From Clostridia bacterium (lineage in GTDB: Bacteria > Bacillota > Clostridia > Christensenellales > Aristaeellaceae): a stretch of DNA of 22,979 nt. The first letter of the stretch is position 1. The number at the start of each line of letters is the position of its first letter. The position numbers and the translations under genes are program-made. The notes beneath the pieces were generated by a model, which worked only from the letters and a program-made list of their open reading frames with translations, had not been told where the DNA came from and made no database searches. Below are positions 1,716 to 22,979 of this stretch, piece by piece. The stretch spans positions 1 to 22,979 of the forward strand of contig JAKSQG010000008.1 of NCBI GenBank assembly GCA_024404275.1. Reading direction: 5' to 3'.

Positions 1716-2831
1716 ATGGCAGTACAGCCGGACAGCCGCGGAACGTGCATCAGGGTCAACCTGACAGCCCTTGCCGAAAACGCCGCGGCACTGAAAAAAG
1801 CCGTGGGCGCCGTTCATATGATGGCCATTGTCAAGGCCAACGCGTATGGTCATGGCATGGTGCAGGTAGCCCGCGTCGCGTTGGAGAACGGCGCTGATTT
1901 TCTGGGCGTGGCGACCCCGTAGGAGGGTCAGGCGCTGCGTGAGGCGGGCTTGACCGCCCCGGTGCTGGTGTTGGGCAATACCGGCATCGATGGTGCGCGC
2001 ATTTGCGCCGCAAACGGCATTACCCAGGCGGTCTGCGATGCAGACGGCGTAAGGCGCATGCAGCGCGCCTGTGAAGAACTTCAGATGACGGCGTAGGTAC
2101 ATCTCAAGTGCGATACCGGCATGAGCCGCATCGGTGTGAGAAGCGAGGAAGAGGTACAGCAGGTACTGGATGCGTTGAACGAGTGTCCTGCTGTGAAGCT
2201 CACCGGCGCGTTCATGCATTTTGCGGCGGCAGACGGCGACGAAGCCTTTGCCCGCAAACAGTTTGACACCTTTATGCGTCTGACGGCACCGCTGCCGGCG
2301 GGCATTGTGCGCCACGCGGCGGCCAGTGACGCTTCCATCCGCTTCCCCTGGGCACGGCTCGATATGGTCCGCGAGGGCATTTCGCTCTACGGCTGCCCGG
2401 GCGTGCAGAGTGGGATCACGCTGCGTTATGCCATGAGCTTTGAAACACGGGTGGAATTTATCAAGACACTGCCTGCGGGCGAAACGGTGGGCTACGGCCG
2501 CACCTGGACGGCTCCGCGGGAAACACGTGTGGCGACCCTTGGCGTGGGCTATGGTGACGGCTATCTGCGTTCCGCCTCCGGCAAGGCACAGGTGCTGATC
2601 GGGGGACAGCTGTGCCCCGTGATCGGGCGTGTATGCATGGATCAGATCATGGTGGATGTGACCGATGTGCCCGGTGTGCAGGAAGGCGACTGCGCTGTAT
2701 TGATGGGGCGTCAGGGCGAAATGGAGATCACCCCCGATCAGCTGGCTGCCTGGGCGGGCACCATCAGCTATGAGGTCATGCTCTCTCCCCATCCCCGCGT
2801 ACCCGTCCTATATTATGAGGAAGGAAAATAA
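1716..2831 (+). CDS. alr: Alanine racemase, full length (371 codons) only if two in-frame TAG codons are read through
   Basis: One continuous frame: 1716 to TAG(1920), to TAG(2094), to TAA(2829). PLP-lysine motif MAIVKANAYGHG lies before the first TAG. VHLKCDTGMSRIG follows immediately after the second. Further downstream come VGYGRTW, GVGYGDGY, GRVCMDQIMVD and ISYEV. No frameshift. Confidence 0.9.
1920..1922 (+). other. In-frame TAG codon 1 in alr (context acc ccg TAG gag ggt)
   Basis: 1920-1716=204, divisible by 3. Protein context GVATP*EGQALREAGL. Confidence 0.95.
2094..2096 (+). other. In-frame TAG codon 2 in alr (context acg gcg TAG gta cat)
   Basis: 2094-1716=378, divisible by 3. Protein context ELQMTA*VHLKCDTGM. 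Confidence 0.95.
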
Positions 2832-2837
2832 CCCGGA

Positions 2838-3641
2838 ATGAAGAATAAAAACAACGGAGCAAAGCCGATCTACAAGCCCTACCTGAAGGGCAATGTCATC
2901 AGCGGCACGGCGGCCAAACGCGGCCTTTCCGTGCTGGGCATGGAAGTGCTTTTTGCTTTTATGTTTGTGCTGATCGCCACCATGGCTACGGGCGGCGCGC
3001 ATTGGATCACCGTATCGGTCAACGTGCTGCTGGTGTTGGGTGCGGCGTTTGCCATGTATAATGCCGGTGCGGGCAAGGGCGAGGGCGATGTGGGCTTTGC
3101 TGAAATCGCTCAGGCGCGGCTGGACAGCGGCAAAAACGTGCCCGACAGCGAAAAGGACCGCTGCTACAATGCATTGAAAGGCTTTTTTTCGGCGGCAGTT
3201 GGTGCACTGCCGGTGTTTGCGATAGCGCTGCTGTTTTCCCTGATCGCGCATCGTCAGCTGGTTTCCATGGGTGTGCTGCCTTCCTGGGTGGCGGCCTATG
3301 AGCAGCATGAGGACATCGGTGCCGCCCTGGCGTGGTACAGCGAAGTGTCACCTGTCACGCTGGAGGATATCCTGCGCATTATCATGCGCGTGTTTGTGTT
3401 CCCGTTTGTCAACATCGCCGGCGCGGATAACTACGATGCCATGTATCTGGTGGACCGTCTGAGCCCGCTGCTGGTGCTGATCATGCCCTTCTTCTACGGT
3501 CTCGGTTATCTGCGCGGACCGCATCTGCGTGCCATGGTGCATGGCAACATCCGCCAGAACCGCCGCCGCCATAACCGCAAGGAACGCCGCGCCCGTGAAA
3601 AGCGCGCCCTTGAGATGAAGCAGAAAAAGGAACTGGTGTAA
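2838..3641 (+). CDS. Multi-pass membrane protein of unknown function with a highly basic C-terminal tail
   Basis: 267-aa ORF starting 7 nt after alr. Several hydrophobic segments. C-terminus RQNRRRHNRKERRAREKRALEMKQKKELV. Stop TAA. Confidence 0.7.
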   Translation: MKNKNNGAKPIYKPYLKGNVISGTAAKRGLSVLGMEVLFAFMFVLIATMATGGAHWITVSVNVLLVLGAAFAMYNAGAGKGEGDVGFAEIAQARLDSGKNVPDSEKDRCYNALKGFFSAAVGALPVFAIALLFSLIAHRQLVSMGVLPSWVAAYEQHEDIGAALAWYSEVSPVTLEDILRIIMRVFVFPFVNIAGADNYDAMYLVDRLSPLLVLIMPFFYGLGYLRGPHLRAMVHGNIRQNRRRHNRKERRAREKRALEMKQKKELV

Positions 3642-3643
3642 GT

Positions 3644-4231
3644 ATGCGCATCATCGCGGGGGAAATGCGTTCCCGAACGATTCTGGCGCCCAAGGGCAGT
3701 GAGACGCGGCCCACGCTGGACAGGACCCGGGAATCGCTGTTCAATATCATTGCCGCGGAATGCCCGGGGGCCCGGGTACTGGATCTGTACGCCGGCAGCG
3801 GCGCCCTTGCGCTGGAGGCCATCAGCCGCGGCGCGGACAGGGCTGTGCTGTGCGACTGCTCACGCGAGGCAGCGGCTGTGATCCGGCGCAACATCGAGTC
3901 GCTTAAGGTGGACGACAGGGCGGAGCTTTTGTTCATGCGTGATGAGCTGGCCATCCAGACGCTGGCAAAACGGCAGGAAAAGTTTGACCTGATCTTTCTG
4001 GACCCGCCCTACCGCTGCGATACCGCGCCGGCGTGCAGGCAGCTGCTGGAAGCCGGTGTGTTTCTGCCGGGTGCACTGGTGATTATTGAACATCTGGAAA
4101 CCGTGACGCCGCAGGTATCGGCCGCCTTCCGTCAGACGGATCGCCGTCGCTACCGTGATACGGCCATTACATTCTATCGGATCGAGGTGAACGAAAATGC
4201 CGAAGGTGTGGATCTTTCCGGGCAGCTTTGA
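3644..4231 (+). CDS. rsmD: 16S rRNA (guanine966-N2)-methyltransferase RsmD
   Basis: MRIIAGEMRSR...TRPTLDRTRESLFNII, SAM motif LDLYAGSGALALEAISRGA, and DPPY. Stop TGA. Confidence 0.9.
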   Translation: MRIIAGEMRSRTILAPKGSETRPTLDRTRESLFNIIAAECPGARVLDLYAGSGALALEAISRGADRAVLCDCSREAAAVIRRNIESLKVDDRAELLFMRDELAIQTLAKRQEKFDLIFLDPPYRCDTAPACRQLLEAGVFLPGALVIIEHLETVTPQVSAAFRQTDRRRYRDTAITFYRIEVNENAEGVDLSGQL

Positions 4232-4685
4232 CCCGGCAACGCGGGGACATGAAGATCTGATCCACCGTGCTTCGCTTCTGTGCGATGAATTGATCGTAGC
4301 GGTGCTGATCAACCCCGATAAAAAGGGCCTGCTGCCCTTCAAAAAGCGCATCGAGATTCTAAAAGCGGTCTGTGCCGACCTGCCCAATGTGCGGGTGGAC
4401 AGTCATAACGGCTTGCTGGCGGATTATGCGCGGCAGCAGAATGCCGCTGCCGTGGTGCGCGGCGTGCGCTCCGGCACAGAGATGGATTCCGAGCTGCCGT
4501 GGTCCACGTTCAACCGCGCGCTGTACGAGAATTTTGAAGCGGTCTATCTGCCCGCACGGCCCGATCTTCGGGATGTGTCGAGCAGCATGGTGCGTCAGCT
4601 GGCTGCCTTCGGCGGCGATATCACGCCCTTTGTGCCCGAAAAAGGGGCGGAGCTGATCCGCAATTATCTGGAACATCATATCTGA
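4197..4685 (+). CDS. coaD: Phosphopantetheine adenylyltransferase
   Basis: PGSFDPATRGHEDLI (T/HxGH nucleotidyltransferase motif). GAGGTG RBS 7 nt upstream. Overlaps the rsmD 3' end by 35 nt. Stop TGA. Confidence 0.92.
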   Translation: MPKVWIFPGSFDPATRGHEDLIHRASLLCDELIVAVLINPDKKGLLPFKKRIEILKAVCADLPNVRVDSHNGLLADYARQQNAAAVVRGVRSGTEMDSELPWSTFNRALYENFEAVYLPARPDLRDVSSSMVRQLAAFGGDITPFVPEKGAELIRNYLEHHI

Positions 4686-4698
4686 GGAGGATATTCAC

Positions 4699-5358
4699 AT
4701 GGCGATGAAAGTTTTCAACATCATCAGCAACATCCAGGGTGTGCTTGAGAATTCGAAGACCAACCTTTTCTCCGGCGGCCGTGTGCTGGTGGACCGCAAG
4801 AATCTGGAAGAGCTGCTCCGCGAGCTGTCCGACAGCATGGAGCCCGATCTGGTGGCGGCCCGTGATCTGCTGGCGCAGACGGATGAAATCCGTGCACAGG
4901 CCGACGACTACAAGCGCAAAACGGTGTCGGAAGCCAATGCCGAGGCGGAACGCGTCAAGCGTGAATCCGACATGAACCTGGCCAAGGCGCAGAATGATAC
5001 CGAAAAGACCTGCCGCGACATGCTGGAGCAGGCTACGGCCAAGTCCAACGAGATGATGAATCAGGCTGCCGAGCATGCCAACCGCCGTGTGGCGGCGGCC
5101 GATGAAGAGGCCAAGCGTCTGGTCAGCACCAACGAGATCACCCTGCGCGCCCAGGCCCGCGCCGCCGAGATCGAAGAAAAGGCGAACCGTGAGGCCGATG
5201 AGCTGCGCCGCCGCACCATGCAGGAATTGTCGGATGTGCTGCTGCAGGCGGAAAACGTGCTGGGCGGTCAGCTGAACGGTCTGCGTTCTGCCCGTCAGCA
5301 GCTGGCGGGCGGCTATGCCGCCCCGGAGGCCGAATACCCCGAAACGGTGCAGCAGTAA
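4699..5358 (+). CDS. Coiled-coil protein of unknown function (Ala/Glu/Arg-rich)
   Basis: 219-aa ORF with GGAGG 8 nt upstream of the ATG. Composition suggests long alpha-helices. No family confidently recognised. Stop TAA. Confidence 0.75.
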   Translation: MAMKVFNIISNIQGVLENSKTNLFSGGRVLVDRKNLEELLRELSDSMEPDLVAARDLLAQTDEIRAQADDYKRKTVSEANAEAERVKRESDMNLAKAQNDTEKTCRDMLEQATAKSNEMMNQAAEHANRRVAAADEEAKRLVSTNEITLRAQARAAEIEEKANREADELRRRTMQELSDVLLQAENVLGGQLNGLRSARQQLAGGYAAPEAEYPETVQQ

Positions 5359-5453
5359 GGGCGGTCAGCGGGCTTTTTGTGCCTTTGAAATGCACGGGAG
5401 GGCGTCCGTTTGATACAAAACGGTTAAATATTGAACACCCCGCTCAAAAAAAC

Positions 5454-5482
5454 TTGACAGCCCGATGGAATAACGATATAAT
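5454..5482 (+). promoter_or_regulatory. Consensus SigA promoter upstream of rpmH (TTGACA, 17 nt, TATAAT)
   Basis: TTGACA at 5454-5459, exact 17-nt spacer, TATAAT at 5477-5482. About 90 nt upstream of the rpmH ATG. Confidence 0.8.
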
Positions 5483-5577
5483 GTTAAAGCTGTTTTGATG
5501 GGTTTTTCCCGGAAAAACATAACGTGATGAACAGCGCGATTAAAAGCGTGCAGTCATTATTTTAAGGAGTGAATACG

Positions 5578-5712
5578 ATGTTCCGTACCTATCAGCCGAA
5601 GAAGCGTCAGCGCAGCAAGGTGCATGGTTTCCGTGCCCGTATGTCCACCAAGAACGGCCGCAGAGTACTGGCTGCCCGCCGCCGTCGTGGCCGCAAGGAA
5701 CTGACGGTCTGA
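5578..5712 (+). CDS. rpmH: 50S ribosomal protein L34
   Basis: Too short for the ORF track. Hand translation: [53 protein letters not shown] upstream. Stop TGA. Confidence 0.97.
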
Positions 5713-5760
5713 CACACTTCCGACCGCGCACGGCGCGGCCAATGAAGAAGCATGGCTCAA

Positions 5761-5803
5761 CCCGCCCCGGTGCCTGCCATCGAGCATTCCCGGGGCGGGT
5801 TTT
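5761..5803 (+). terminator. Hairpin plus T-run between rpmH and rnpA (likely partial terminator or attenuator)
   Basis: cccgccccgg (5761-5770) pairs with ccggggcggg (5790-5799), with a 19-nt loop, followed by tttt. Confidence 0.5.
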
Positions 5804-5830
5804 CCATGCCGCTTTGAGGGCGGAAAAGAC

Positions 5831-6190
5831 ATGCAGAAAGCGTTAAGACTGCGTAAAAACGGTCAATTTCAATATGTTTTCCGAAAAGGCAAGGGGATGG
5901 GCACACGCCTGGTCTCCTTAACCTACGTGCGTGCCAATCGGCTGCAGGTAGGTTTTTCGGTGAGCAAAAAAGTAGGCCATGCCGTGGTGCGCAATCATGT
6001 GAAGCGCCGTCTGCGGGAGATCATCCGCTTGCAGGCTCCTCAGCTCAAAAACGGTTACTACATCTTCGTGGCCAGGCCTGAGGCCGCGGAAGCATCCTAC
6101 ATGCAACTGGAGAAGGCCGTCAACAGCCTTCTGCGCAGACAGAATCTGTACAAGGAACATAGCACTGAGTCAGGGGACGAGCAGTCATGA
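5831..6190 (+). CDS. rnpA: Ribonuclease P protein component
   Basis: LRLRKNGQFQYVFRKGK and the RNR-type motif VVRNHVKRRLREI. Synteny after rpmH. Stop TGA overlaps the yidD ATG (ATGA). Confidence 0.93.
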   Translation: MQKALRLRKNGQFQYVFRKGKGMGTRLVSLTYVRANRLQVGFSVSKKVGHAVVRNHVKRRLREIIRLQAPQLKNGYYIFVARPEAAEASYMQLEKAVNSLLRRQNLYKEHSTESGDEQS

Positions 6191-6438
6191 AGCGGTTCAT
6201 GCTCGGCACGCTGCGCTTCTATAAGCGGAATATCAGTCCGCTCCTGCCGCCCGCGTGCAAATATGTTCCCACCTGTTCGGAATACGCCCGCATCGCCATA
6301 GAGCGCTACGGCGCGGCCCGCGGCGGCATGATGGCCGCCGGCAGACTGTTGCGCTGCAATCCCTTCGCCAAGGGCGGGTACGATCCCGTCCCCGAGGCAG
6401 AATCCATTGACCAGGAAGGACGGAGAATGAAAGAATGA
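6187..6438 (+). CDS. yidD: Membrane protein insertion efficiency factor YidD
   Basis: YKRNISPLLPPACKYVPTCSEYARIAIERYG...LLRCNPFAKGGYDPVP. ATGA overlaps with both neighbouring genes. Confidence 0.93.
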   Translation: MKRFMLGTLRFYKRNISPLLPPACKYVPTCSEYARIAIERYGAARGGMMAAGRLLRCNPFAKGGYDPVPEAESIDQEGRRMKE

Positions 6439-7481
6439 CCGCTTGGTTCAAAAGCATCCTCGAATGGATCTACGGAGTGGTGGGCAGCTACGGCATCGCC
6501 GTAATGATCTTCACCGTAATGTTCCGCGTGATCCTCACCCCGTTTGAAGTTTCCTCCCGTAAGGGCATGCGCAAGATGGCGGCAATTCAGCCCAAGCTCA
6601 ACGAGCTGCAGAAAAAGTACGCCAACGATCAGGCCAAGCTGCAGCAGAAGCAGTCCGAGCTGATGCGCAAGGAACACTATAATCCCCTGTCGGGCTGCCT
6701 GCCGATGCTGCTGCAGTGGCCCATCCTGCTGATCATGTTCTACGCGATGAGAGACGTGGCCAGCGAAAAGCTGATCGGTCAGGCCATTTCGCTGCTGACC
6801 GGTGAGACCCCCAAGTACGAAAGCTTCCTGTGGATCAAGAACGTATTTATGGCCGACTCTCCCTTTACCGCCATTGCCCCCGATGCTACCGGCCTGATCG
6901 CCGCGGGTCAGGGCGTATGGCAGGGCGTGTTCAACGGTCTGTCCGAGCTGCAGAAGACCAACCTGCTGACGGTGATTCAGCAGTATGTGCCTGCTGCCGC
7001 CGGTCTTGGCTTTGAAGAGGTATTCAACTTTGCCTCTTCCGCCACCCTGAGCACCACCATCAACACCTATGTGATGCCCGCGCTGCAGCAGATCCCCGCT
7101 TACGTGGCGGATGTGGCTGCCGTGCCCGGTTGGAAGAACGTGGGCTTCCTGCTCTTCAGTGTGACTCTTTTCCAGAACTTCAACGGTCTGCTGATCTTGC
7201 CTCTCCTGTCCGGTGTGACCCAGTGGGCCATGACCAAGTTCAACCCTGCCATGCAGCAGCAGCCCCAGCCGGCTGGCCAGCAGAAGGGCATGGGCAACTT
7301 CATGACCTGGTTCTTCCCCATCTTCTCTGTGTTCATCTGCTTGAGCAGCAACGCCGGTTTTGCCCTGTACTGGGTAACCATCAACATTTTTGCGACTGTG
7401 CAATCTATCCTTATCAACAAGTATCTTGAGAGCAAAGACGCCAAACAGAAGGCGCTGACAGAAGGGAATACCGCCAAATGA
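6435..7481 (+). CDS. yidC: YidC/Oxa1 family membrane protein insertase
   Basis: IAVMIFTVMFRVILTPF...KMAAIQPKLNELQKKY...NPLSGCLPMLLQWPILLIMFYAMR. Synteny. Stop TGA overlaps the jag ATG. Confidence 0.92.
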   Translation: MTAWFKSILEWIYGVVGSYGIAVMIFTVMFRVILTPFEVSSRKGMRKMAAIQPKLNELQKKYANDQAKLQQKQSELMRKEHYNPLSGCLPMLLQWPILLIMFYAMRDVASEKLIGQAISLLTGETPKYESFLWIKNVFMADSPFTAIAPDATGLIAAGQGVWQGVFNGLSELQKTNLLTVIQQYVPAAAGLGFEEVFNFASSATLSTTINTYVMPALQQIPAYVADVAAVPGWKNVGFLLFSVTLFQNFNGLLILPLLSGVTQWAMTKFNPAMQQQPQPAGQQKGMGNFMTWFFPIFSVFICLSSNAGFALYWVTINIFATVQSILINKYLESKDAKQKALTEGNTAK

Positions 7482-8575: not shown

Positions 8576-8587
8576 TACGCTTCTGAC

Positions 8588-8612
8588 AGGACGGCTTCGG
8601 CCGTCCTTTTTT
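8588..8612 (+). terminator. Rho-independent terminator after jag
   Basis: aggacggc ttcg gccgtcct followed by tttttt. Confidence 0.85.
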
Positions 8613-8633
8613 GTCAAGAAAGGAGAAAATCAA

Positions 8634-10914: not shown

Positions 10915-10931
10915 TCACAAGGGAGAAAAGG

Positions 10932-11639: not shown

Positions 11640-11644
11640 TAAAA

Positions 11645-11680: not shown

Positions 11681-11699
11681 ATGAAAGTCAATACGGGAC

Positions 11700-11729: not shown

Positions 11730-11740
11730 AAATAGGTTGA

Positions 11741-13099
11741 TTATTCGCCCATCAGGGAGTTGATCAGCACGGTCATGGCTTCGGGAGCAACGTTGCCGAT
11801 GGCACCAATCAGGGTGAAGATGTTGTTCTGGATATCCGCCATCACGGCCTGATATGCTTCGGAACTTTCATCCGCCAGATCTTCAATGTTCACAACGGTC
11901 AAGCCGCTCAGGTCAACGCCCTCCGCGGTGGCTTCGGTTTCGCTGCAGCTCATATACACGGTGACGATATCCATGCCCATCGCGGGATCGACGGTCAGAG
12001 CCATCTCAACGCCGTTTTCGTTGGGAACGAGGCTGCAGGTGGACTTGATGACATCGCCGGCAGTATACAGGTAAGCCGCGGCGCCCACAGTGCCGCCCAT
12101 GCTGGCGGACTCGATGTGGAAGTAGATGTCGCTCAGGTTGCTGCCGCTGGCGATGGCGGTAACGGCAGCATTCCAGTCGCCGCTGTACTGCGCCATGGTA
12201 TCGGTTACGATATCCAGCGAGATGGCGGCGTCCTCACCGCTCTCCATGACCTCAACGGTTACATACAGGGTATCGGTAGACAGGGCAATGGCGTTGTCGC
12301 CTTCGGACTCATAGGTGCTTACAACGGCCAGCAGCTGGTTTTCTTCGGCAGGAGCGGCTTCGAACTCCGCCAGCAGCATGGGCAGCACGTCTTCGGCGGT
12401 GAGGGTCACACCGGCCTGGGCGCTGATCTCATCCAGCAGCATCTGCATGACGGGGGCCAGCAGTTCATCGCTGAAGGCACGGGTCAGCACGGCGGCAGCC
12501 ATGGCGTTGATATCGTTGGAGGTGATGTAGTAGCTGGTGACGTTGCCTTCCTGTTCAGAGACCATGTTTTCCAGCACGGCGGCGATATCGCTCACGTAGC
12601 CCATCACGTCCAGCATGATGGCACCCATCAGCTCTTCATCGCCCAGCACGCTCTCGATGGAACTGAAGAAAGCTTCGGGGTCAACGGATTCATCGTTTAC
12701 AGTGGTGGTCACGCCAAGAGTGGTGTAGATATTATCCATATCCAGCTTGATGGCATAGGAGGGGAAGAGGGAGCTGACGAGGTAGATATCCTCGCCTTCC
12801 ATGGCGCCGGCAAGGCTCAGTACGGGGGCTACGCTGCCGTTGCCGTCATCCAGACCAATCAGCACGGTACCGGCGGTTTCGCTGACATTGACGGACAGGA
12901 CGGCCTTTTCCACCAGGGTCAGCAGCGCGGCGGTCAGCTTGGCTTCGGCATTGGCTTCCGCATCGTCGAGGGCGGGCAGGTCTGCCAGCAGGGCGTCGTT
13001 GATATCCACACGCAGTACCATCTGCTGCGTTTCAGCCAGACCGCTTACGCAGGACAGAAGCATCAGCAGGGACAGAAGAATGGCAATTGTCTTTTTCAT
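11741..13099 (-). CDS. Secreted or lipid-anchored acidic protein of unknown function
   Basis: 452-aa ORF. Signal peptide MKKTIAILLSLLMLLSC with a possible lipobox LLSC. Acidic, Ala/Val/Thr-rich. Has its own promoter and terminator. Stop TAA. Confidence 0.8.
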   Translation of the reverse strand: MKKTIAILLSLLMLLSCVSGLAETQQMVLRVDINDALLADLPALDDAEANAEAKLTAALLTLVEKAVLSVNVSETAGTVLIGLDDGNGSVAPVLSLAGAMEGEDIYLVSSLFPSYAIKLDMDNIYTTLGVTTTVNDESVDPEAFFSSIESVLGDEELMGAIMLDVMGYVSDIAAVLENMVSEQEGNVTSYYITSNDINAMAAAVLTRAFSDELLAPVMQMLLDEISAQAGVTLTAEDVLPMLLAEFEAAPAEENQLLAVVSTYESEGDNAIALSTDTLYVTVEVMESGEDAAISLDIVTDTMAQYSGDWNAAVTAIASGSNLSDIYFHIESASMGGTVGAAAYLYTAGDVIKSTCSLVPNENGVEMALTVDPAMGMDIVTVYMSCSETEATAEGVDLSGLTVVNIEDLADESSEAYQAVMADIQNNIFTLIGAIGNVAPEAMTVLINSLMGE

Positions 13100-13134
13100 G
13101 TGAGCAGGTTTCCTTTCATTATTTTATTGACTGT

Positions 13135-13163
13135 ATTATAACACAAAAGGCGTGGGCCTTCAA
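13135..13163 (-). promoter_or_regulatory. SigA-type promoter for 11741..13099 (TTGAAG, 17 nt, TGn-TATAAT)
   Basis: On the minus strand: TTGAAG (13163-13158), 17-nt spacer, tgtTATAAT (-10 at 13140-13135). Confidence 0.6.
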
Positions 13164-13167
13164 CCTG

Positions 13168-14595: not shown

Positions 14596-14644
14596 CGGGT
14601 TCTTTCCTCCGCAAGCGGCGGTTATATCACCGCTGTGCCTTTCT

Positions 14645-14673
14645 ATTATATATGAAAGCCGCGGTTTTGAAAA
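14645..14673 (-). promoter_or_regulatory. Candidate promoter for 13168..14595 (TTTTCA, 17 nt, TATAAT)
   Basis: On the minus strand: TATAAT at 14650-14645, -35-like TTTTCA at 14673-14668. Confidence 0.4.
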
Positions 14674-14709
14674 GACCTTGACCGCCTCTCCGCTCCCTTC
14701 CCGCTTGCC

Positions 14710-14738
14710 TTGACAGTTGTGCGCGGATGTACTAAAAT
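14710..14738 (+). promoter_or_regulatory. SigA-type promoter for the VanW gene (TTGACA, 17 nt, TAAAAT)
   Basis: TTGACA at 14710-14715, 17-nt spacer, TAAAAT at 14733-14738. About 35 nt upstream of the ATG. Confidence 0.65.
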
Positions 14739-14774
14739 ATACTATGGTATATTGGTGGCAAAGGAGAACGTTGT

Positions 14775-16508: not shown

Positions 16509-16520
16509 GGAGGAGACCGT

Positions 16521-17231
16521 ATGCGAAAAGGCGAATTGCGCCGTCAGGCGCTGCTGGACGTGGCGCGGCAGCTGTTTTATGAAAAAGGCTACCGCGAGAC
16601 TTCGGTGGATGATATCCTGCAGGCGCAGGGCTGCAGCAAGGGCAGCTTTTATCACTGCTTTGATACTAAACTGGATGTGCTGACCGCCATCAGCGAGGAA
16701 AAAGCCGCGGAATGGTTTGATCTGTACTGCAAGACGCCGTGTGCCACCTCGCTGGACCGGCTGAACGCGCTGCTTTATTGCATGCATCCCTTCCGGCAAA
16801 GGGAAGAGCAGTTTTTATCCACTCTGCTGGAGCTGCGCTCCCGATAGGAAAGCGCGGCTGTGGAGGGGGCGCTGCGGGATGCGGAACGCAGACTGTTCAA
16901 GTCCGAAATGGAAAAGATCGTCATGATGCTGTGCGCTTCGGATACGGCGCGTGTGGCGCGCACAAGGCTGGACGCGTTGGTGTTTGAAGCCTTTACCGCG
17001 TTTTATGATGAGATGCTGCTGACCATTGACCTGTGCCGCAAGGACCCGGAAGAGGTGTATTCTCTGCTGCCGCCGGTCATTGATTCCGCACGTTTTTTGT
17101 GGGAGCGTGTGCTTGACCTGCCCTACGGACGATTGGAGATCGTGCGGCCCGAGGAAGCATTGCCCCTGATTTATCGTTTGCTGACAACCGGCACCGACGC
17201 CGGTCAAAACACGGAGGTAACCGAATCATGA
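16521..17231 (+). CDS. TetR/AcrR family transcriptional regulator, full length (236 codons) only if one in-frame TAG is read through
   Basis: HTH motif GYRETSVDDILQAQGCSKGSFYHCFDTKLDVL. ORFs 16521..16847 and 16860..17231 share one frame, separated only by TAG at 16845 plus 4 sense codons. GGAGGAG RBS. Stop TGA overlaps the next ATG. Confidence 0.85.
16845..16847 (+). other. In-frame TAG codon in the tetR-family gene (context tcc cga TAG gaa agc)
   Basis: 16845-16521=324, divisible by 3. Protein context LELRSR*ESAAVEGAL. Confidence 0.9.
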
Positions 17232-17920
17232 ACACCGTTCTTGCTGCCCTGGACCTGAACAAATACGGCTCCAGCGATTTCTGGACAAGCCAGTTTTCCA
17301 ACTTTACCCCGGCTACCGTGGCGCTGTGCCTGGTGCTGGCGTTGGTGACGGGCCTGCTCATCTCCTTTGTTTACAAAATCACCTACCGCGGCGTGCTCTA
17401 CAGCCCCCAGTTTTCCATGGTGCTGATCATGCTGACGCTGATCACCGCCCCTGTGGTGATGGCCATCGGCAGTGACGTGGCGCTGTCCATGGGCATGGTG
17501 GGTGCTCTGTCCATTGTACGTTTCCGTACCGCCGTCAAGGAGCCGCTGGATACCTGCTATATGTTCTGGTCCATCACGATGGGTATTCTGCTGGGCGCCA
17601 AGCAGTACGCCATCTCGCTGGTTGTGGCGGTGGGAATCGGCATTATTCTGATCCTGCTTTCCTTTGTCAAAATGCGTCATCCCAACGCTTACCTGATGGT
17701 GGTGCATTATGATCCCTTTGCCGAGCCCGATATTCTGGATGAGGTGCGCCGTCATGACGCCCGCTCCCGTGTGCGCTCCAAGACCGTGACCCGCAGCGGT
17801 GCCGAGATCACCATTGAGCTGCTGCTGCGCAACCGCACGGACATTGTCGGCCATATGCTGGACCTCAAGGGCGTGCATGACGCCACGCTGGTCGCCTGCC
17901 AGAACGAAACCGGAGCTTAA
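17228..17920 (+). CDS. DUF4956-like multi-pass membrane protein
   Basis: 230 aa with several TM segments. The motif SIVRFRTAVKEPLD and pairing with a VTC-domain gene are typical of DUF4956 as I remember it. Translationally coupled to the tetR-family gene (ATGA). Stop TAA. Confidence 0.75.
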   Translation: MNTVLAALDLNKYGSSDFWTSQFSNFTPATVALCLVLALVTGLLISFVYKITYRGVLYSPQFSMVLIMLTLITAPVVMAIGSDVALSMGMVGALSIVRFRTAVKEPLDTCYMFWSITMGILLGAKQYAISLVVAVGIGIILILLSFVKMRHPNAYLMVVHYDPFAEPDILDEVRRHDARSRVRSKTVTRSGAEITIELLLRNRTDIVGHMLDLKGVHDATLVACQNETGA

Positions 17921-17922
17921 CA

Positions 17923-18627
17923 ATGGCTGTACCGCTTCGACATGAGCTGAAGTTTTTCATCTCGCCCATCCAGTATCAGGTGTTATCGCGAACGCTCAAG
18001 GCGACGCTCAACCCCGATCCCAACGGTGATGAGAATAATCAGTATCACATCCGCTCGCTGTATTTTGACACGGTGTTTGACGATGCGCTGATGGACAAGA
18101 TCGGCGGTACCGCCAACCGTGACAAGTACCGCATCCGCATTTATAACTTCAGCGATAAAATGATCCGTCTGGAGTGCAAAAGCAAGTTCAGGGACCTGAT
18201 CTCCAAGCGCAGCGTGCGCATCAGCCGTGACCTTGCCGAGCAGCTCATTGCCGGTGACCCCACGGGACTGGAAAATACACGTTCCGGTCTGATGAGCGAT
18301 ATGTACCGGGAGATGCGCACCAAGCTGCTGCATCCCGTGGTCATTGTGGACTATCTGCGTGAGGCGTATCTGCACCCTGTGGAAGAGGTGCGCATCACCT
18401 TTGATATGCAGCTGCGCAGCGGCGTGGGCAGTAAAGACCTGTTCAATCCGCATGTGCCCACGGTGGCGCCGTTTGACCATGATGAGATTATTCTTGAGGT
18501 CAAGTATAACGAGTGCCTGCCGCCGTACATTGCCAACATCCTCACCTATGCGCTGCGGGACGGCGCCTGCCGCTCGGCCATCAGCAAGTATGTGTGGTGC
18601 CGCCGGTTTGAATTCAAGGACTTCTGA
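17923..18627 (+). CDS. VTC-domain (polyphosphate polymerase-like, triphosphate-tunnel fold) protein
   Basis: Alternating charged beta-strand motifs RHELKFFI, IRSLYFDT, KYRIRIY, IRLECKSK and IILEVKYN, typical of a CYTH/VTC tunnel. Starts 2 nt after the DUF4956 gene. Stop TGA. Confidence 0.8.
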   Translation: MAVPLRHELKFFISPIQYQVLSRTLKATLNPDPNGDENNQYHIRSLYFDTVFDDALMDKIGGTANRDKYRIRIYNFSDKMIRLECKSKFRDLISKRSVRISRDLAEQLIAGDPTGLENTRSGLMSDMYREMRTKLLHPVVIVDYLREAYLHPVEEVRITFDMQLRSGVGSKDLFNPHVPTVAPFDHDEIILEVKYNECLPPYIANILTYALRDGACRSAISKYVWCRRFEFKDF

Positions 18628-18644
18628 GAACGAAGGGATTTGAG

Positions 18645-18690
18645 GGGGAGAGGTACGCTTTACGATGCCGAAAAGCATACCTCTCCCCCC
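18645..18690. other. Perfect 12-bp GC-rich hairpin (gggggagaggta / tacctctccccc) just after the VTC gene
   Basis: Arms at 18645-18656 and 18679-18690. No clear T-run follows, so it is only a weak terminator candidate. Confidence 0.6.
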
Positions 18691-18728
18691 TTGACTCTCT
18701 CTTGGAGAAAAGGCGGTCAAAGGTAATA

Positions 18729-18779
18729 AAAAAGCACCCTTGCATTGATGAAAGTCATCAGACATCAAAGCAAGGGTGT
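18729..18779 (-). terminator. Rho-independent terminator for udk (minus strand)
   Basis: 16-position stem, 15 pairs and one mismatch: cacccttgcattgatg (18736-18751) with catcaaagcaagggtg (18764-18779). On the minus strand it is followed by TTTTTT (A-run 18729-18734). Confidence 0.7.
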
Positions 18780-18817
18780 GATATTGTGCGAAAAACTGCC
18801 CTTTCTCGGGTGGGGTT

Positions 18818-18862
18818 TGGGGCGACCATGCTTTCAGGCTCTGAAAGCGTGGTCGCCCCAAC
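18818..18862. other. 21-bp near-perfect hairpin with a 3-nt loop, 6 nt beyond the udk stop
   Basis: ttggggcgaccatgctttcag gct ctgaaagcgtggtcgccccaa, with one G-U pair. No flanking T-run on either strand. Confidence 0.7.
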
Positions 18863-18868
18863 AAAATC

Positions 18869-19483
18869 TTATTCGTTTTTGCTCAGCTCGCTGCGCAGAT
18901 AGCCGGCAAGAATCTCCACGATACGGGCATTCTTGCCGCCGCGGGTGACGATCACATCGGCATCATTGGCATAGTTGCGGATGTATTTTTCATACATCGG
19001 TTTGACCGTGGAACGGTACTGCTCGGAAATGTCCTCGATCTGGCGTCCTCTGTCACGGATGTCGCGCTTGATGCGGCGCAGCAGGCAGATATCGGGCTCC
19101 ACATTGATGTACAGCTTGAGGAACATCTTGTCCCGCAGACGGTCATCAAAGAAGGCATGAATGCCTTCCACCACCACTACATCGGCCGGCTGCAGCATCT
19201 GTGTGGAGGCGGTGCGGCGGTGCTGGGAAAAGTCATACGCCTTACGGGGCACGCTCTTGCCCTCCATCAGGGCACACACATCCCGGTAGAGCAGGTCATG
19301 GTCAAAAATATAAGGCTCATCATAATTGAGCCGGGTACGCTCCTCAAAGGACATATCGGGATGATCCAGATAGTAGGCGTCCTGATTGATCATCACGCTG
19401 GTGGCGCCCACCGCGTTGCAAAGCTCTCTGGCCAGCGTGGTCTTGCCCGAGCCGCTGGCGCCGCAGATTCCGATAATTATCAT
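18869..19483 (-). CDS. udk: Uridine kinase
   Basis: P-loop GICGASGSGKTTLA and ...VVVVEGIHAF...RRIKRDIRDRGR. GGGAGG RBS 9 nt upstream. Stop TAA. Confidence 0.93.
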   Translation of the reverse strand: MIIIGICGASGSGKTTLARELCNAVGATSVMINQDAYYLDHPDMSFEERTRLNYDEPYIFDHDLLYRDVCALMEGKSVPRKAYDFSQHRRTASTQMLQPADVVVVEGIHAFFDDRLRDKMFLKLYINVEPDICLLRRIKRDIRDRGRQIEDISEQYRSTVKPMYEKYIRNYANDADVIVTRGGKNARIVEILAGYLRSELSKNE

Positions 19484-19564
19484 GGCATTCTGCCTCCCTT
19501 ATGAAAACAGGATACATTATCCTGCCGCTTCTGTCAAGCACGGCATTTTTCTTCCATATTGCGC

Positions 19565-19593
19565 TTGAAAACAGGGCGTGATGATGCTATAAT
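19565..19593 (+). promoter_or_regulatory. SigA-type promoter for mscL (TTGAAA, 17 nt, TGn-TATAAT)
   Basis: TTGAAA at 19565-19570, 17-nt spacer, tgcTATAAT with the -10 at 19588-19593. Confidence 0.7.
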
Positions 19594-19625
19594 TCCTTTT
19601 AGTAATGAAAGGAGTGTTTACACTT

Positions 19626-20084
19626 ATGAAAAAGATGCTGAAAGAATTCAAAGCCTTCGCGATGCGCGGCAACGTGCTGGATATGGCGGTCGGCGTCATC
19701 ATCGCCGGTGCCTTCGGCAAGATCGTGACCTCTCTGGTCAATGACATCTTCATGCCCTTCATCGGTCTGCTGACCGGCGGCACCAACGTGTCCAAGATGT
19801 TCTTCCTGCTGGGCAAGGCTCCCGAAGGCGTGGAGATCACCAGCCTGGAGCAGGCGACCGAACTGGGCATCGCCACCATGAACTACGGCGTGTTCATCCA
19901 GACCATCATCGACTTCATCCTGGTGGCGCTGTGCATTTTCTTCGTGGTCAAGCTGTTCAACAAGATGGCCCCCAAGAAGCCCGCTGCTCCCGCCAAGGAT
20001 CCCCGCAAGTGCCCCTACTGCTTCTCTGTCATCGATGACAAGGCGACCCGCTGCCCCCACTGCACCAGCGAGCTCAAGCAGTAA
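19626..20084 (+). CDS. mscL: Large-conductance mechanosensitive channel MscL with a C-terminal CxxC...CxxC zinc-ribbon tail
   Basis: FKAFAMRGNVLDMAVGVIIAGAFGKIVTSLVNDIFMP. Start taken at the ATG at 19626, downstream of AGGAG. C-terminus CPYCFSVIDDKATRCPHCTSEL. Stop TAA. Confidence 0.92.
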   Translation: MKKMLKEFKAFAMRGNVLDMAVGVIIAGAFGKIVTSLVNDIFMPFIGLLTGGTNVSKMFFLLGKAPEGVEITSLEQATELGIATMNYGVFIQTIIDFILVALCIFFVVKLFNKMAPKKPAAPAKDPRKCPYCFSVIDDKATRCPHCTSELKQ

Positions 20085-20101
20085 TCCATTCGTTCTTATT
20101 C

Positions 20102-20130
20102 CGGCTCGGGTGCATACCCGGGCCGTTTTT
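20102..20130 (+). terminator. Rho-independent terminator after mscL
   Basis: cggctcgggt gcat acccgggccg (one G-U pair) followed by ttttt. Confidence 0.75.
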
Positions 20131-20150
20131 CATCCCGAAAGGACAGTAAA

Positions 20151-21140
20151 ATGAAATTCAAGCATTTTTTCTGGGATTTTGACGGCACCCTGTTTGATAC
20201 CTACGGACGCATCGCCCGTGCGGCACAAAAATCGCTGCGGGATCATGGCGTTGACGTCACGATGGAAGAGCTGATGCCCGCTGTCAAGGTGTCGATCCCC
20301 CACGCGTGGAAGACCTTTGCTCCGCAGTTTGAGCGTAAGGAGCTGTCATCGACCTATCATCAGTACGCCGAAGAGGAAGGCTATGACACCATGCAGCCCT
20401 ATCCCGGGGCCATTCGCATGCTGGAAGCGGTGGTGGAGAACGGCGGCTGCAACTATCTGTATACGCTGCGCGGAAAAAGCGCCCTTGAAGCGCTGGATTA
20501 TTATGGCTTGAAGGGTTTGTTTCGTGATTGTGTGACCTCGCTGGACGGCTTCCCCGGAAAGCCCGCCCCCGACGCGCTCAATCATCTGGTGGAAAAATTC
20601 TCCCTGGATACCAAGGAGTGCATCATGATGGGCGACCGCGATATCGACCTCAATGCCGGCTTCAACGCGGGCATGAGCGCGGCTTTATTTGACCCCGAGG
20701 GATGGTATACCGATTTTCCCATTGATCGCCGCTACAATACCTTCTTTGACATGACCGCCGACCTGGTGTGGGAAAAGTGCGAGAAGAACCTGCAGGTGCG
20801 TGACCTGTTTGACATGCAGGAAAGGCTGCAGAAGCAGTTTGAGTCCAAATGGGGCGGCATAACGCCCAAGCGCGGACGGGAGCAGACGCTGTGGATGGTG
20901 GGGGAGATCGGTGAGGTCATTGACATCATCAAAAAGAACTCCGCTGAAAAGATCATGACGCGTCCCGAGCTGAAGCGTCTGCTGGCGGAAGAGCTGGCCG
21001 ATGTGAGCATGTATCTGTATGATGTGCTGCTGTGCTACGGCATCACGCCGGAGGAGTTTGCCGAGGTCTATCTGGAAAAACATCTGCACAACATGGGACG
21101 CGATTATCATCGTGAGCATGTTGAAAAGTACGGAAAGTAA
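20151..21140 (+). CDS. Fusion protein: HAD-superfamily phosphatase (N-terminal) plus MazG-like NTP pyrophosphohydrolase domain (C-terminal)
   Basis: HAD motif I FWDFDGTLFDT and motif IV MGDRDIDLNAG. C-terminal half has VGEIGEVIDIIKK and EELADVSMYLYDV, the acidic helices typical of MazG or dimeric dUTPase-like enzymes. Stop TAA. Confidence 0.8.
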   Translation: MKFKHFFWDFDGTLFDTYGRIARAAQKSLRDHGVDVTMEELMPAVKVSIPHAWKTFAPQFERKELSSTYHQYAEEEGYDTMQPYPGAIRMLEAVVENGGCNYLYTLRGKSALEALDYYGLKGLFRDCVTSLDGFPGKPAPDALNHLVEKFSLDTKECIMMGDRDIDLNAGFNAGMSAALFDPEGWYTDFPIDRRYNTFFDMTADLVWEKCEKNLQVRDLFDMQERLQKQFESKWGGITPKRGREQTLWMVGEIGEVIDIIKKNSAEKIMTRPELKRLLAEELADVSMYLYDVLLCYGITPEEFAEVYLEKHLHNMGRDYHREHVEKYGK

Positions 21141-21143
21141 ACC

Positions 21144-22979
21144 ATGCTGAGTGCAAACCTGAAAACCAAGATATCGATGCTGCCCGACAGCCCCGGCTGC
21201 TACCTGATGAAGCACGAGGGCAAGATCATTTATGTCGGCAAGGCTGTCAACCTCAAAAACCGTGTGCGCAGCTATTTTTACTCCAAAGAGCACACGCCCA
21301 AGGTAGCGGCCATGGTGGCGCAGATCGATGATTTTGATATTCTGCTGTGCAGCACCAATCTGGAAGCGTTGGCGCTGGAATGCAACCTGATCAAGCTGCA
21401 CATGCCGCATTACAACATCCTGCTCAAGGATGACAAGCACTACCCTTATGTGCGCATCGACAAGCGGGAGGCGTTTCCGCGGGTCACCATTGCACGGCGC
21501 ATGGTCAAGGATGGCGCGCAGTATTTTGGTCCGTATATCGGTGCCTCGGCGGTGCGGGATGCGCTGGAAGTGATCCGCAAGGCCTTTCCCATCCGCACCT
21601 GCACCCGTAAGCTGCCCAAGGAGCGCCCGGCCCGTCCCTGCGTGAACCATGAGATCGGACGTTGTCTGGGTCCGTGCTGCGGATTGTGCTCGGCGGAGGA
21701 TTACGGCAAGGTCATTGACGGTGTCATCGCCTTTTTGAACGGCAACAACAAGGAGATCATTGAGCGGCTGAAAAAGGAAATGTGGGACGCTTCCGCTGCC
21801 TATAACTTTGAGCTGGCAGCCATGAAGCGTGATGCCATTCACGATATCGAAGGACTGATGGAGCAGCAGAAGGCCATTCAGACGCGTGACAGCCAGCAGG
21901 ATGTGATCGGTCTGGCACAGGATGGACTGGATGCCATGGCGCAGGTGCTCATCATCCGCGATGGACGCATGATCGGCGGCGAAAGCTTTGCACTGCCGGG
22001 AGAGGGCTCGTAGCCGCGTGAAAACGTGCTGACATAGTTTACGCTGCGCTATTATGCCGACCGCATGCCCCCGAAGGAGATTCTGTGTCCCCTGATGGAG
22101 GAGCCGGAAGTGCTGCAGGAGCTGCTGCGCGAAAAGCGGGGCGGCGCTGTCAATATTCAGATTCCGCAGCGCGGGGATAAGCGCGCGCTGGTGCTGATGG
22201 CGGAGCGCAATGCCTGCGACGCACTGGAAAAACGCAATGCCCGTGCGCAGATCAAGGAAGAACGTACCGTTGGTGCTGTCAGGGAGCTGGCGCAGGCACT
22301 GGGCATGAAAACCGTGCCGAGGCGCATTGAGGGCTTTGATATTTCCAACACACAGGGTGTGCTGTCTGTCGCTTCCATGGTGGTGTTCATCGATGGTGAG
22401 GCAGCGCACAGCGAATACAGGCATTTTCGCATCAAGACGGTGGAGGGCGCCAACGATTTTGCCTCCATGAACGAGGTGCTGGGGCGGCGCTTTGAGCGTA
22501 CGCTGCGGGAGGATCCTGCCGAGCGCTGGGTAATGCCCGATATGGTGCTGATCGACGGCGGTCCCGAGCAGCTGCGCTTTGCACTGGAAGCGGTGCATGC
22601 GCTGGGGCTGGAGGTGCCCATGTTTGGTCTGGCAAAGGAGGAAGAAGCCATCTGGCTGCCTGACCGTGAGGAACCCATCCTGCTGGATCATCACACGCCC
22701 GCGCTGCATCTGATTCAGCGCATCCGCGATGAGTCGCACCGCTTTGCCATTTCGTATCACCGCAGCCTGCGCGGAAAGGCGGCGACGCATTCCACGCTGG
22801 AGGATATTCCCGGCATTGGTCCTTCCCGCAGGAGAGCGCTGCTGGCGCACTTTGGTTCCATTCGCAAGATGAAGGAGCTGGATGATCCCGAAGCGCTGCT
22901 GGTGGTCAAGGGGATGACACGCCCCGCGGCGGAGGCGGTCTTTGCCGCGCTGCATCCGAAGGACGAAGAAGAGAAATAA
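21144..22979 (+). CDS. uvrC: Excinuclease ABC subunit C, full length (611 codons) only if two in-frame TAG codons are read through
   Basis: GIY-YIG motif GCYLMKHEGKIIYVGKAVNLKNRVRSYF and the UVR domain lie before the TAGs. RIEGFDISNTQG, IDGGPEQL, IRDESHRFAI and the HhH motif LEDIPGIGPSRRRALL lie after them. One frame throughout: 22011-21144, 22035-21144 and 22065-21144 are all divisible by 3. Stop TAA. Confidence 0.92.
22011..22013 (+). other. In-frame TAG codon 1 in uvrC (context ggc tcg TAG ccg cgt)
   Basis: Protein context ALPGEGS*PRENV. Confidence 0.95.
22035..22037 (+). other. In-frame TAG codon 2 in uvrC (context ctg aca TAG ttt acg)
   Basis: Protein context ENVLT*FTLRYYADRMPPKEIL. 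Confidence 0.95.

Follow-up and report, generated by a model that had tools for sequence, protein, structure and literature searches.

In the papers that could be searched, all stop-codon reassignments described in bacteria involve UGA (PMC8629427; PMC13462651; gTranslate preprint), and they are expected to arise when a tRNA acquires a mutated anticodon and the release factor for the same codon is lost (PMC13462651; PMC8629427). Sense use of UAG is known only from pyrrolysine, from phages, from some archaea and from eukaryotes. In gut phages, the codon is read by a suppressor tRNA carrying a CUA anticodon (PMC10607447; PMC12386605). A sequence-only reading of the locus described here had stated that sense use of UAG is not known from housekeeping genes of a Clostridia-like bacterium. 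In our search of the literature, we encountered no bacterial case of UAG reassigned to a standard amino acid in searchable papers and no report of the clade under study or of a bacterial UAG-to-Glu code.

The locus, subsequently referred to as the window, is a stretch of 22,979 nucleotides whose content is of chromosomal core character (rpmH, rnpA, yidD, yidC, jag, coaD, alr and uvrC), from a genome with a G+C content of ~58%. It belongs to a genus-level group of uncultured Clostridia that comprises at least three species-level lineages, the first containing the MAG of the window (GCA_024500545.1, 'Clostridia bacterium') and an ENA strain (L019), the second a strain from Logan SRR27361835 and the third the MAG GCA_045599485.1. 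Related samples of traceable origin are apparently metagenomes from the ruminant gut. For comparison, we used contigs from a second MAG (L001 and L002, with respective nucleotide identities to the window of 90% and 91%), from an ENA MEGAHIT assembly (L019, 97%) and from a Logan assembly (L017 and L020, latter with 94% identity), the clade sequence examined amounting to ~60 kb in total. The synteny around uvrC and yebC is not kept in the nearest relatives, and the columns of orthologous TetR and Alr positions were thus taken from protein searches. A sequence scan of JGI metagenomes with a 27-nucleotide context of an alr TAG gave no match, and the clade is thus apparently absent from them.

Four genes are located on the minus strand in our gene map (Table 1), which thus departs from what a naive reading of the plus strand would give. 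In 24 tallied coding sequences encompassing 6,909 codons, with rpmH left out, we find five in-frame TAGs but no TAA and no TGA, and there are no frameshifts, as had been claimed. The positions of these TAGs and the lengths of the three affected genes upon read-through were reproduced exactly. The same holds for the terminators of the 25 coding sequences ending within the window, which, despite the four genes on the minus strand, are distributed between TAA (12) and TGA (13), with TAG being absent.

Table 1. Coordinates of genes and codons in the window, with the state of each codon in related contigs.
Feature	Position	Strand	Description
yebC	749-1516	-	
alr (alanine racemase)	1716-2831	+	371 codons, TAA end, two in-frame TAGs
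TAG, alr codon 69	1920-1922	+	TAG also in L001 and L020
TAG, alr codon 127	2094-2096	+	GAG in L020, AAT in L001
CDS	11741-13099	-	
CDS	13168-~14637	-	
tetR-family regulator	16521-17231	+	236 codons, TGA end, one in-frame TAG
TAG, tetR codon 109	16845-16847	+	TAG also in L002 and L019
udk	18869-19483	-	
CAG, udk codon 98	19190-19192	-	TAG in strain L019, GAA in L002
uvrC	21144-22979	+	611 codons, TAA end, two in-frame TAGs
TAG, uvrC codon 290	22011-22013	+	TAG in L019, GAA in L002
TAG, uvrC codon 298	22035-22037	+	TAG in L019, GAG in L002
GAG, uvrC codon 475	22566-22568	+	TAG in sister genome L002

The continuation of conserved domains beyond the TAGs is evident from single Pfam matches that span these codons in alr and uvrC. 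In Alr, the uninterrupted stretches of Ala_racemase_N (residues 14-227) and Ala_racemase_C (239-366) account for both positions, and in UvrC, which also contains GIY-YIG, UvrC_RNaseH_dom and HHH_5 domains, both TAGs are located within UvrC_RNaseH (252-363). The product of the tetR-family gene contains a TetR_N domain at residues 11-57, and its full-length homologues of 220-250 amino acids align through the TAG. Beyond the TAG-bearing genes of the window, in-frame TAGs are found in udk of L019, in an ABC permease and an AAA_18 kinase of L002 and in PrkC of L017. Together, ten distinct sites were identified in the clade, all of them in genes for which the Pfam domain matches extend over the TAG (alr, tetR, uvrC, udk, prkC, the permease and the kinase).

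The sequence-only reading had put the chance that five random nonsense mutations would all yield TAG at (1/3)^5. This argument is overstated, since the genes of the window contain 1119 codons that are one substitution away from TAG, compared to 640 for TAA and 267 for TGA, thus placing the chance at ~0.55^5 or about 0.05. Such modest significance within the window alone would be compatible with nonsense mutations in decaying genes or with consensus or assembly errors of the MAG, as would the fact that every TAG is a single substitution away from a sense codon and that the NCBI annotation of the genes describes truncated proteins. This explanation is contradicted by the comparison of related genomes. 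TAG accounts for all ten of the clade's nonsense sites (p ~0.003), and identical TAGs are found in independent assemblies that originate from different samples and different assemblers: a UvrC fragment of exactly 289 amino acids, ending at the TAG, was recorded from NCBI, Logan and ENA, and Alr fragments of either 236 or 293 amino acids from about ten Logan and ENA assemblies. At two sites, Alr69 and TetR109, TAG was retained across lineages, between genomes that are 3-12% apart in their DNA with dS values of 0.18-0.37, the upper value being that of alr between the window and L001. Moreover, when the window is compared with the second MAG, alr, tetR and uvrC agree in length and are free of indels and of in-frame TAA or TGA codons, and purifying selection is undiminished downstream of the TAGs, with dN/dS values between the window and L001 or L002 (0.016-0.16) that are as low as upstream. 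The values for the whole gene and for the part downstream of the TAGs are 0.12 and 0.11-0.16 for alr (compared to L001), 0.11 and 0.09 for tetR (compared to L002) and 0.03 and 0.016-0.04 for uvrC (compared to L002). The TAGs are genuine and inherited, and the genes containing them experience purifying selection both before and after these codons. We regard decay or error as their cause to be extremely improbable.

As an argument, the absence of TAG from the terminators carries less weight than its correct count had suggested, since neighbouring lineages also rarely use this codon, with about 2-3 TAG terminators in ~65 genes (L003, L006, L009, L010, L013, L015 and L018). In relatives without in-frame TAGs, TAG constitutes about 3-5% of the stops, and at a background of ~4%, its absence from 25 gene ends would be expected 36% of the time. 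Similarly, TAG does not terminate any of ~42 non-orthologous clade genes, an absence that is not significant in light of the 3-5% found in relatives. Avoidance of TAG as terminator is thus not specific to the clade and its absence is not significant in a sample of this size. The central proposal that TAG serves as a sense codon, by either reassignment or constitutive suppression, is supported by the independent assemblies, the retention across lineages and the low dN/dS, together with the lack of TAG at the ends of the ~42 genes, and the case became strong only once the comparative data were added.

The contexts of the five TAGs contain no common motif, as had been noted from the sequence, and the sites turn over between strains, being gained in some and lost in others. 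Both observations led us to reject programmed site-specific readthrough. A base-calling or DNA-modification artefact was likewise rejected, in view of the lack of a shared motif, the origin of the TAGs from both G-to-T and C-to-T changes and the polymorphism of sites between strains.

The inserted residue had been considered unreadable by eye due to the variability of the aligned positions. Such variability was found for Alr127 (Q43, D29 and E15; n=119) and, in distant homologues, for TetR109 (P7, E6, A3 and Q3), but not for Alr69, where all 119 homologues contain a glutamate and solved alanine racemases either Glu or Asp, or for UvrC290, with a glutamate in 118 of 120 homologues. Taken together with the alternation of codons between strains, the columns do point to a specific residue, which most probably is glutamate. 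At UvrC298, Glu (54) and Asp (56) are about equally abundant, with the closest homologues all containing Glu (53/53). The same is the case for the three closest homologues of the AAA_18 kinase (3/3), and UvrC475 aligns predominantly with Glu and Gln (E67, Q47; n=120), the closest relatives containing Glu. The columns of the permease and PrkC sites are variable, as is that of Udk98 in solved uridine kinases. Between close strains, TAG alternates with GAG or GAA at four sites (Alr127, UvrC290, UvrC298 and UvrC475), GAG constituting only 23% of the sense codons that are one step away from TAG. Neither Alr127, which is encoded by AAT in L001, nor Udk98, where TAG alternates with both GAA and CAG, is specific for Glu. 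In a crude column likelihood calculated for six sites, Glu is preferred to Gln by a factor of ~10^7.7, a value whose size is inflated by the non-independence of homologues but whose direction is clear. As judged from these alignments, the clade probably reads TAG as glutamate, using it as a rare synonymous codon that accounts for ~1% of the Glu codons of the window, while its genes end in TAA or TGA only.

If UAG were instead assigned to glutamine, a tRNA-Gln(CUA) would be needed, which could emerge from tRNA-Gln(CUG) by a single G36-to-A transition, as exemplified by E. coli supE and by TAG-recoded phages. The CAG of the window at Udk98 is a one-step transition away from the TAG of L019 and glutamine is common at Alr127 (43/119) and UvrC475 (47/120), in line with such a scenario, but there is no site where TAG alternates with CAG alone compared to the four alternating with GAG or GAA, and the near-invariant glutamates at Alr69 and UvrC290 and the described likelihood add to the evidence that makes this assignment distinctly unlikely. 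Its appeal as the customary reassignment of the amber codon elsewhere, in phages and in eukaryotes (for latter PMC8629427), is thus opposed by the residues found at the aligned positions. We have also rejected a phage-type recoding of UAG to Gln, since the locus consists of chromosomal core genes and the aligned residues are Glu. Pyrrolysine, inserted at UAG throughout the genome as in the archaeal 'code 34' or in specific genes as in some Firmicutes, provides the sole described natural route for decoding UAG in bacteria. A genome-wide UAG-to-Pyl code is known in archaea (bioRxiv 10.1101/2024.09.30.615893) and users of pyrrolysine are typically depleted of TAG at their terminators, but the residue is a bulky derivative of lysine, whereas conserved residues of acidic character are found at the positions of the TAGs, with GAG or GAA taking the place of TAG between strains. 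No pyl gene and no methylamine methyltransferase gene was found in the ~60 kb of clade sequence, a sample that is too small to exclude them, and we consider pyrrolysine to be very improbable.

If UAG encodes glutamate, the decoding tRNA would contain a CUA anticodon and might have originated by the change of C36 to A in tRNA-Glu(CUC). Its charging could be carried out by a non-discriminating GluRS, as is typical of Firmicutes lacking GlnRS, an enzyme that already tolerates either C or G in position 36. RF1 would have disappeared or be out-competed, corresponding to either full reassignment in its absence or efficient suppression in its presence, and UAG would be gained and lost by substitutions between GAG or GAA and TAG. 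The scarcity of TAG terminators throughout the family may have eased such a change of the code. Searches with ARAGORN and Rfam revealed no tRNA gene of any kind in the window, L001, L002, L017, L019 and L020; MAGs often lack tRNA genes. The RF1 gene prfA is absent from the contigs examined, all of which were reached through proteins encoded in the window. We also scanned for a tRNA-Glu-type anticodon-arm pattern containing CTA (GACRCCGCCYTCTAANGGCGGNARC), which did not identify a match from the clade in the genome collection, JGI metagenomes or viral contigs, a weak negative in light of the possible absence of the MAGs from the genome collection and the potential deviation of the arm from the pattern. 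Within the genome collection, the pattern matched only two Lachnospiraceae genomes. In Lachnoclostridium phytofermentans KNHs2131, a gene for a tRNA(CUA) adjoins that of tRNA-Glu(CUC), from which it differs solely at position 36, and this tandem may be viewed as precedent for the derivation of a CUA anticodon from tRNA-Glu.

As an alternative to a dedicated suppressor tRNA, RF1 might be lost or weakened, with UAG being read ambiguously by near-cognate tRNAs and the mixed products being tolerated in genes of low expression. The failure to find a CUA tRNA in the window, in the clade contigs and by the pattern scans would comply with this possibility, as would the presumed weak expression of the TAG-bearing genes (alr, tetR, uvrC, udk, prkC and the permease) and the absence of TAG from genes of the ribosome and the secretion machinery in the window. 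In RF1-deficient E. coli, the near-cognate products at UAG are mainly Gln, Tyr and Lys rather than Glu. Near-cognate reading also leaves the concentration of TAG at invariant Glu positions unexplained, and the long-kept TAG in alr, a gene of cell-wall biosynthesis (dS 0.37), argues for decoding that is efficient and accurate. We thus find this possibility unlikely.

Returning to glutamate, we are inclined to believe that UAG has been reassigned from stop to Glu in a genus-level clade of gut Clostridia, which would be the first reassignment of the amber codon to a standard amino acid in bacteria and the first of a stop codon to Glu in prokaryotes, captured at an early stage. The presumed early stage is suggested by the still low share of UAG among Glu codons, by its synonymous turnover and by sister lineages that are nearly purged of TAG terminators. 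If true, a new bacterial genetic code with UAG as Glu codon would operate in a free-living bacterium of ~58% G+C, and it would imply that bacteria can abandon RF1-dependent termination. Engineered RF1-free strains of E. coli illustrate that this mode of termination is dispensable. With relatives containing almost no TAG terminators being available for comparison, the clade would offer a young case for distinguishing between codon-capture and ambiguous-intermediate models, and a natural pair of tRNA-Glu(CUA) and GluRS may be of interest for genetic code engineering. There are also consequences for annotation, where genes of these MAGs are currently described as truncated fragments. With UAG accounting for ~1% of Glu codons, the coding density under table 11 barely falls, and screens based on coding density would thus miss and not flag UAG-to-Glu genomes. 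A similar failure of density-based detection was described for UAG-to-Pyl (gTranslate preprint).

The proposed code shares features with several described systems. The bacterial reassignments of UGA to Trp (table 4) or Gly (table 25) in Mycoplasmatales, reduced endosymbionts, MAGs of Eggerthellaceae, Absconditabacteria and Gracilibacteria resemble it as clade-wide conversions of stop to sense that are apparent from in-frame stops at conserved positions of housekeeping genes. They differ in the codon, which here is UAG instead of UGA, in the release factor concerned, which would be RF1 instead of RF2, and in the residue, which would be Glu; the G+C content of ~58% also contrasts with the low G+C of the Eggerthellaceae MAGs reading UGA as Trp (PMC13462651). 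With the archaeal 'code 34', it shares the use of UAG as sense codon throughout a prokaryotic chromosome, the terminators TAA and TGA and a sporadic and shallow distribution (bioRxiv 10.1101/2024.09.30.615893), but latter is found in archaea, employs Pyl and requires pylTSBCD, whereas in this bacterium the aligned residues point to Glu. Crass-like and Lak phages of the gut with UAG-to-Gln codes similar to table 15 also display in-frame TAGs in intact genes (PMC10607447; PMC12386605), but their recoding is thought to time the expression of lytic genes, whereas here the locus is chromosomal (rpmH-rnpA-yidD-yidC-jag, alr and uvrC) and the residue probably Glu instead of Gln. The reading of a stop as Glu has its counterpart in the UAR-to-Glu code of Blastocrithidia nonstop, where it involves tRNA-Glu with stop-matching anticodons (PMC12153298). 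Codes of this type are found in eukaryotes, which contain a single eRF1, and concern UAA and UAG together, whereas in our case only UAG would be affected, with TAA still ending 12 of 25 genes. Finally, amber suppressor strains and the L. phytofermentans pair exemplify how a CUA anticodon is obtained by the change of a single base, but in suppressor strains RF1 is retained along with many TAG terminators, and in-frame TAGs inherited across species do not accumulate in their housekeeping genes.

The five in-frame TAG codons that led the sequence-only reading to propose TAG as a sense codon are real. All of them are found at their claimed positions in alr, the tetR-family gene and uvrC, where Pfam domain matches span them as single stretches, and a tally over 24 CDS (rpmH being left out) returned five TAG, no TAA and no TGA within 6,909 codons. 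Likewise, the 25 genes of the window end with TAA in 12 and with TGA in 13 cases, and none with TAG. The statistical weight initially placed on the window by itself was overstated: since codons one step from TAG (1119) exceed those one step from TAA (640) and TGA (267), the finding that all five nonsense-type codons are TAG has a p of ~0.05, and the absence of TAG terminators, although correctly counted as 0 of 25, is unremarkable at the background rate of relatives.

The window (22,979 bases, G+C ~58%) makes up nearly the entire length of a contig (23,024 nt) in the MAG GCA_024500545.1 (proteins MCQ2453146-173). It contains the core chromosomal genes yebC, alr, rsmD, coaD, rpmH-rnpA-yidD-yidC-jag, udk, mscL and uvrC, together with genes for a Gfo/Idh/MocA-family oxidoreductase, a VanW-domain protein, the tetR-family regulator, DUF4956 and VTC-domain proteins, a HAD hydrolase and, by a weak Pfam match, a type I mannose-6-phosphate isomerase-like protein. 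Long plus-strand ORFs facing its four minus-strand genes were rejected as artefacts of high G+C. At its start, the window holds part of a large protein that is broken by the contig end and extends beyond 874 residues in the related contig L001; this protein contains coiled-coil-like tandem repeats, which give rise to spurious long plus-strand ORFs, and a C-terminal DUF6273.

An artefactual origin of the TAG codons is ruled out by the recovery of the same truncated products from independent NCBI, Logan and ENA records. In exact-sequence look-ups, a UvrC fragment of 289 residues that stops at the first TAG was found in all three sources, and Alr fragments of 236 residues (both TAGs) or 293 residues (first TAG only) occur in ~10 independent Logan/ENA assemblies. 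The codons are also shared by related contigs, with TAG found at alr codon 69 in the window, L001 and L020, at tetR codon 109 in the window, L002 and L019, and at uvrC codons 290 and 298 in the window and L019. If the interrupted genes were pseudogenes, an alr truncated at codon 69 would not hold 300 downstream codons constrained across species. When the window is compared with the second MAG (GCA_045599485.1), alr, tetR and uvrC are of equal length with zero indels at a dS of 0.18-0.48, their dN/dS amounts to 0.12, 0.11 and 0.03, respectively, and the segments 3' of each TAG (dN/dS 0.016-0.16) are as constrained as those upstream. We thus reject the pseudogene explanation.

Within ~60 kb of non-redundant clade sequence, we find ten distinct in-frame TAG sites, which are gained and lost from strain to strain. 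All ten nonsense-type sites of the clade are TAG (p ~0.003 under random nonsense) and TAG terminates none of ~42 non-orthologous genes. A site-specific readthrough signal is ruled out by this turnover and by the absence of a common sequence context at the five window TAGs, the latter as described in the sequence-only reading. The behaviour of TAG instead fits that of a rare synonymous codon, which would account for 5 of 531 putative Glu codons in the window (0.9%). UAG is thus very probably translated, and the comparative data support its proposed role as a sense codon and sharpen it to UAG encoding Glu, for which we infer the decoding machinery.

The assignment of the residue draws on alignments of homologues obtained in protein searches. 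The column of Alr69 contains Glu in 119 of 119 homologues (solved alanine racemase structures show Glu or Asp) and that of UvrC290 in 118 of 120. UvrC298 shows Glu in each of the 53 closest homologues and Glu or Asp overall. At UvrC475, Glu (67) is found besides Gln (47), and the closest homologues have Glu; at the AAA_18 site, Pro (27) is found besides Glu (15), the latter being the residue of the three closest homologues. The columns of TetR109 and Alr127 are variable. Within the clade, TAG interchanges with GAG at Alr127 (GAG in L020; AAT in L001), UvrC298 and UvrC475, with GAA at UvrC290 and with CAG and GAA at Udk98. Since no more than 23% of the sense codons that a single step separates from TAG are GAG, this excess of Glu cannot be put down to mutational chance. 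By a crude likelihood calculated over six columns, Glu leads Gln and Asp by ~10^7.7, a value inflated in size by the relatedness of the homologues and clear in direction. The residue inserted at UAG is probably Glu.

In the nearest lineages (UvrC 77-79%, Alr at most 65% and yebC DNA 86% identical), genes are full-length with Glu codons at the TAG positions, no core gene is split and some genes do terminate with TAG, so the change seems to be limited to one clade of genus rank, which comprises at least three lineages at species level. Across seven loci from neighbouring lineages (L003, L006, L009, L010, L013, L015 and L018), TAG ends ~2-3 of 65 genes (about 3-5%) and is thus very rare as terminator despite a G+C of 53-60%, and in-frame TAGs are absent. 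A family-wide purge of TAG terminators could have preceded the reassignment and eased it. The sample names of sister contigs (XIEF21, TONG22, SAYO22) appear to refer to ruminant-gut MAG studies.

Two further observations concern these relatives. Over 12.9 kb, the ENA contigs L013 and L014 of a sister lineage share 99.985% identity. Their few mismatches include at least one in which GAG in L013 stands against TAG in L014, within a sigma-factor-like gene that terminates with TAG in both; the difference may be a simple nonsense mutation, or it may hint at tolerance of TAG in place of Glu codons in the sister lineage. In L009 (MAG GCA_017390435.1), a HAD hydrolase, which is unsplit with 216 residues in sister contigs, is broken up into a pair of overlapping ORFs (98 and 147 residues). 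The break appears to stem from a frameshift and not from a TAG, and it illustrates ordinary gene damage or assembly error in the group.

With respect to decoding, no tRNA genes or Rfam matches were found in any fetched clade locus, and scans for a tRNA-Glu-type anticodon arm bearing CTA returned nothing from the clade. A genome scan identified a precedent in Lachnoclostridium phytofermentans KNHs2131, where a tRNA(CUA) gene adjoins tRNA-Glu(CUC), to which it is identical over its 72 nt except for C36 to A. With a similar tRNA in a Lachnospiraceae MAG, natural tRNA-Glu-derived amber suppressor genes thus occur in two genomes of Clostridia. In Firmicutes that lack GlnRS, a non-discriminating GluRS accepts both YUC and YUG anticodons and tolerates variation at position 36, while amidation by GatCAB is restricted to tRNA-Gln bodies. 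It is therefore plausible that a tRNA-Glu body with CUA as its anticodon would insert Glu at UAG, and we lean slightly towards a dedicated tRNA-Glu(CUA) as the route. The same data are equally compatible with full reassignment with loss of release factor 1 (RF1) and with efficient suppression with RF1 retained.

The sampled genomes also share an intergenic repeat of ~230 nt, present in two or three places per genome (window, L002, L019) between convergent genes and 3' of uvrC. It is predicted to form three long GC-rich hairpins (consensus fold -112 kcal/mol) with compensatory changes at 9 of 79 pairs, has no match in Rfam and may be a REP-/MITE-like repeat or a compound terminator.

Loci and features of the clade and its relatives; TAG sites are named by protein and codon number
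Feature	Locus	Coordinates	Strand	Remark
Alr69	window	1920
Alr127	window	2094
TetR109	window	16845
UvrC290	window	22011
UvrC298	window	22035
TAG sites UvrC475, ABC permease, AAA_18 kinase	L002
TAG site Udk98	L019
TAG site PrkC	L017
Clade contigs	L001, L002			second MAG GCA_045599485.1; DNA identity 90-91%
Clade contig	L019			ENA MEGAHIT contig; 96.9% identical
Clade contig	L020			Logan SRR27361835; 93.6% identical to window
Clade contig	L017			Logan SRR27361835; 88.5% identical to L002
Minus-strand genes	window	749-1516; 11741-13099; 13168-~14637; 18869-19483	-
Large repeat protein	window	2-748	-
Large repeat protein	L001	3-2624	-
GAG/TAG mismatch region	L013 vs L014	17253-17297 vs ~12267-12269		integrated element by tRNA-Ser(CGA) and integrase
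Split HAD hydrolase	L009	2142-2791	-
tRNA(CUA) and tRNA-Glu(CUC) pair	L007	4658-4870	-	KNHs2131, NZ_JPOF01000002.1
tRNA-Glu-like CUA tRNA	L008	5401-5474	+	Lachnospiraceae MAG JAJBTQ010000002.1
~230-nt repeat	window	18628-18868
~230-nt repeat	L002	4937-5203
~230-nt repeat	L002	9316-9551	-
~230-nt repeat	L019	2722-2974
~230-nt repeat	L019	7086-7328; 9588-9830	-

A non-exhaustive literature search found nothing on these MAGs. In the papers found, bacterial stop codon reassignments concern UGA only (PMC8629427; PMC13462651; gTranslate preprint 10.64898/2026.05.24.727570), whereas in the clade described here the codon is UAG, whose recoding is known from phages (PMC10607447; PMC12386605). Genome-wide translation of UAG as pyrrolysine is, in the same literature, restricted to archaea (10.1101/2024.09.30.615893) and thus differs in both host and residue from a bacterium where Glu is favoured. 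Finally, the UAR-to-Glu code is found in eukaryotes only among these papers (PMC12153298), in contrast to the bacterial clade, for which UAG-to-Glu is the favoured assignment.
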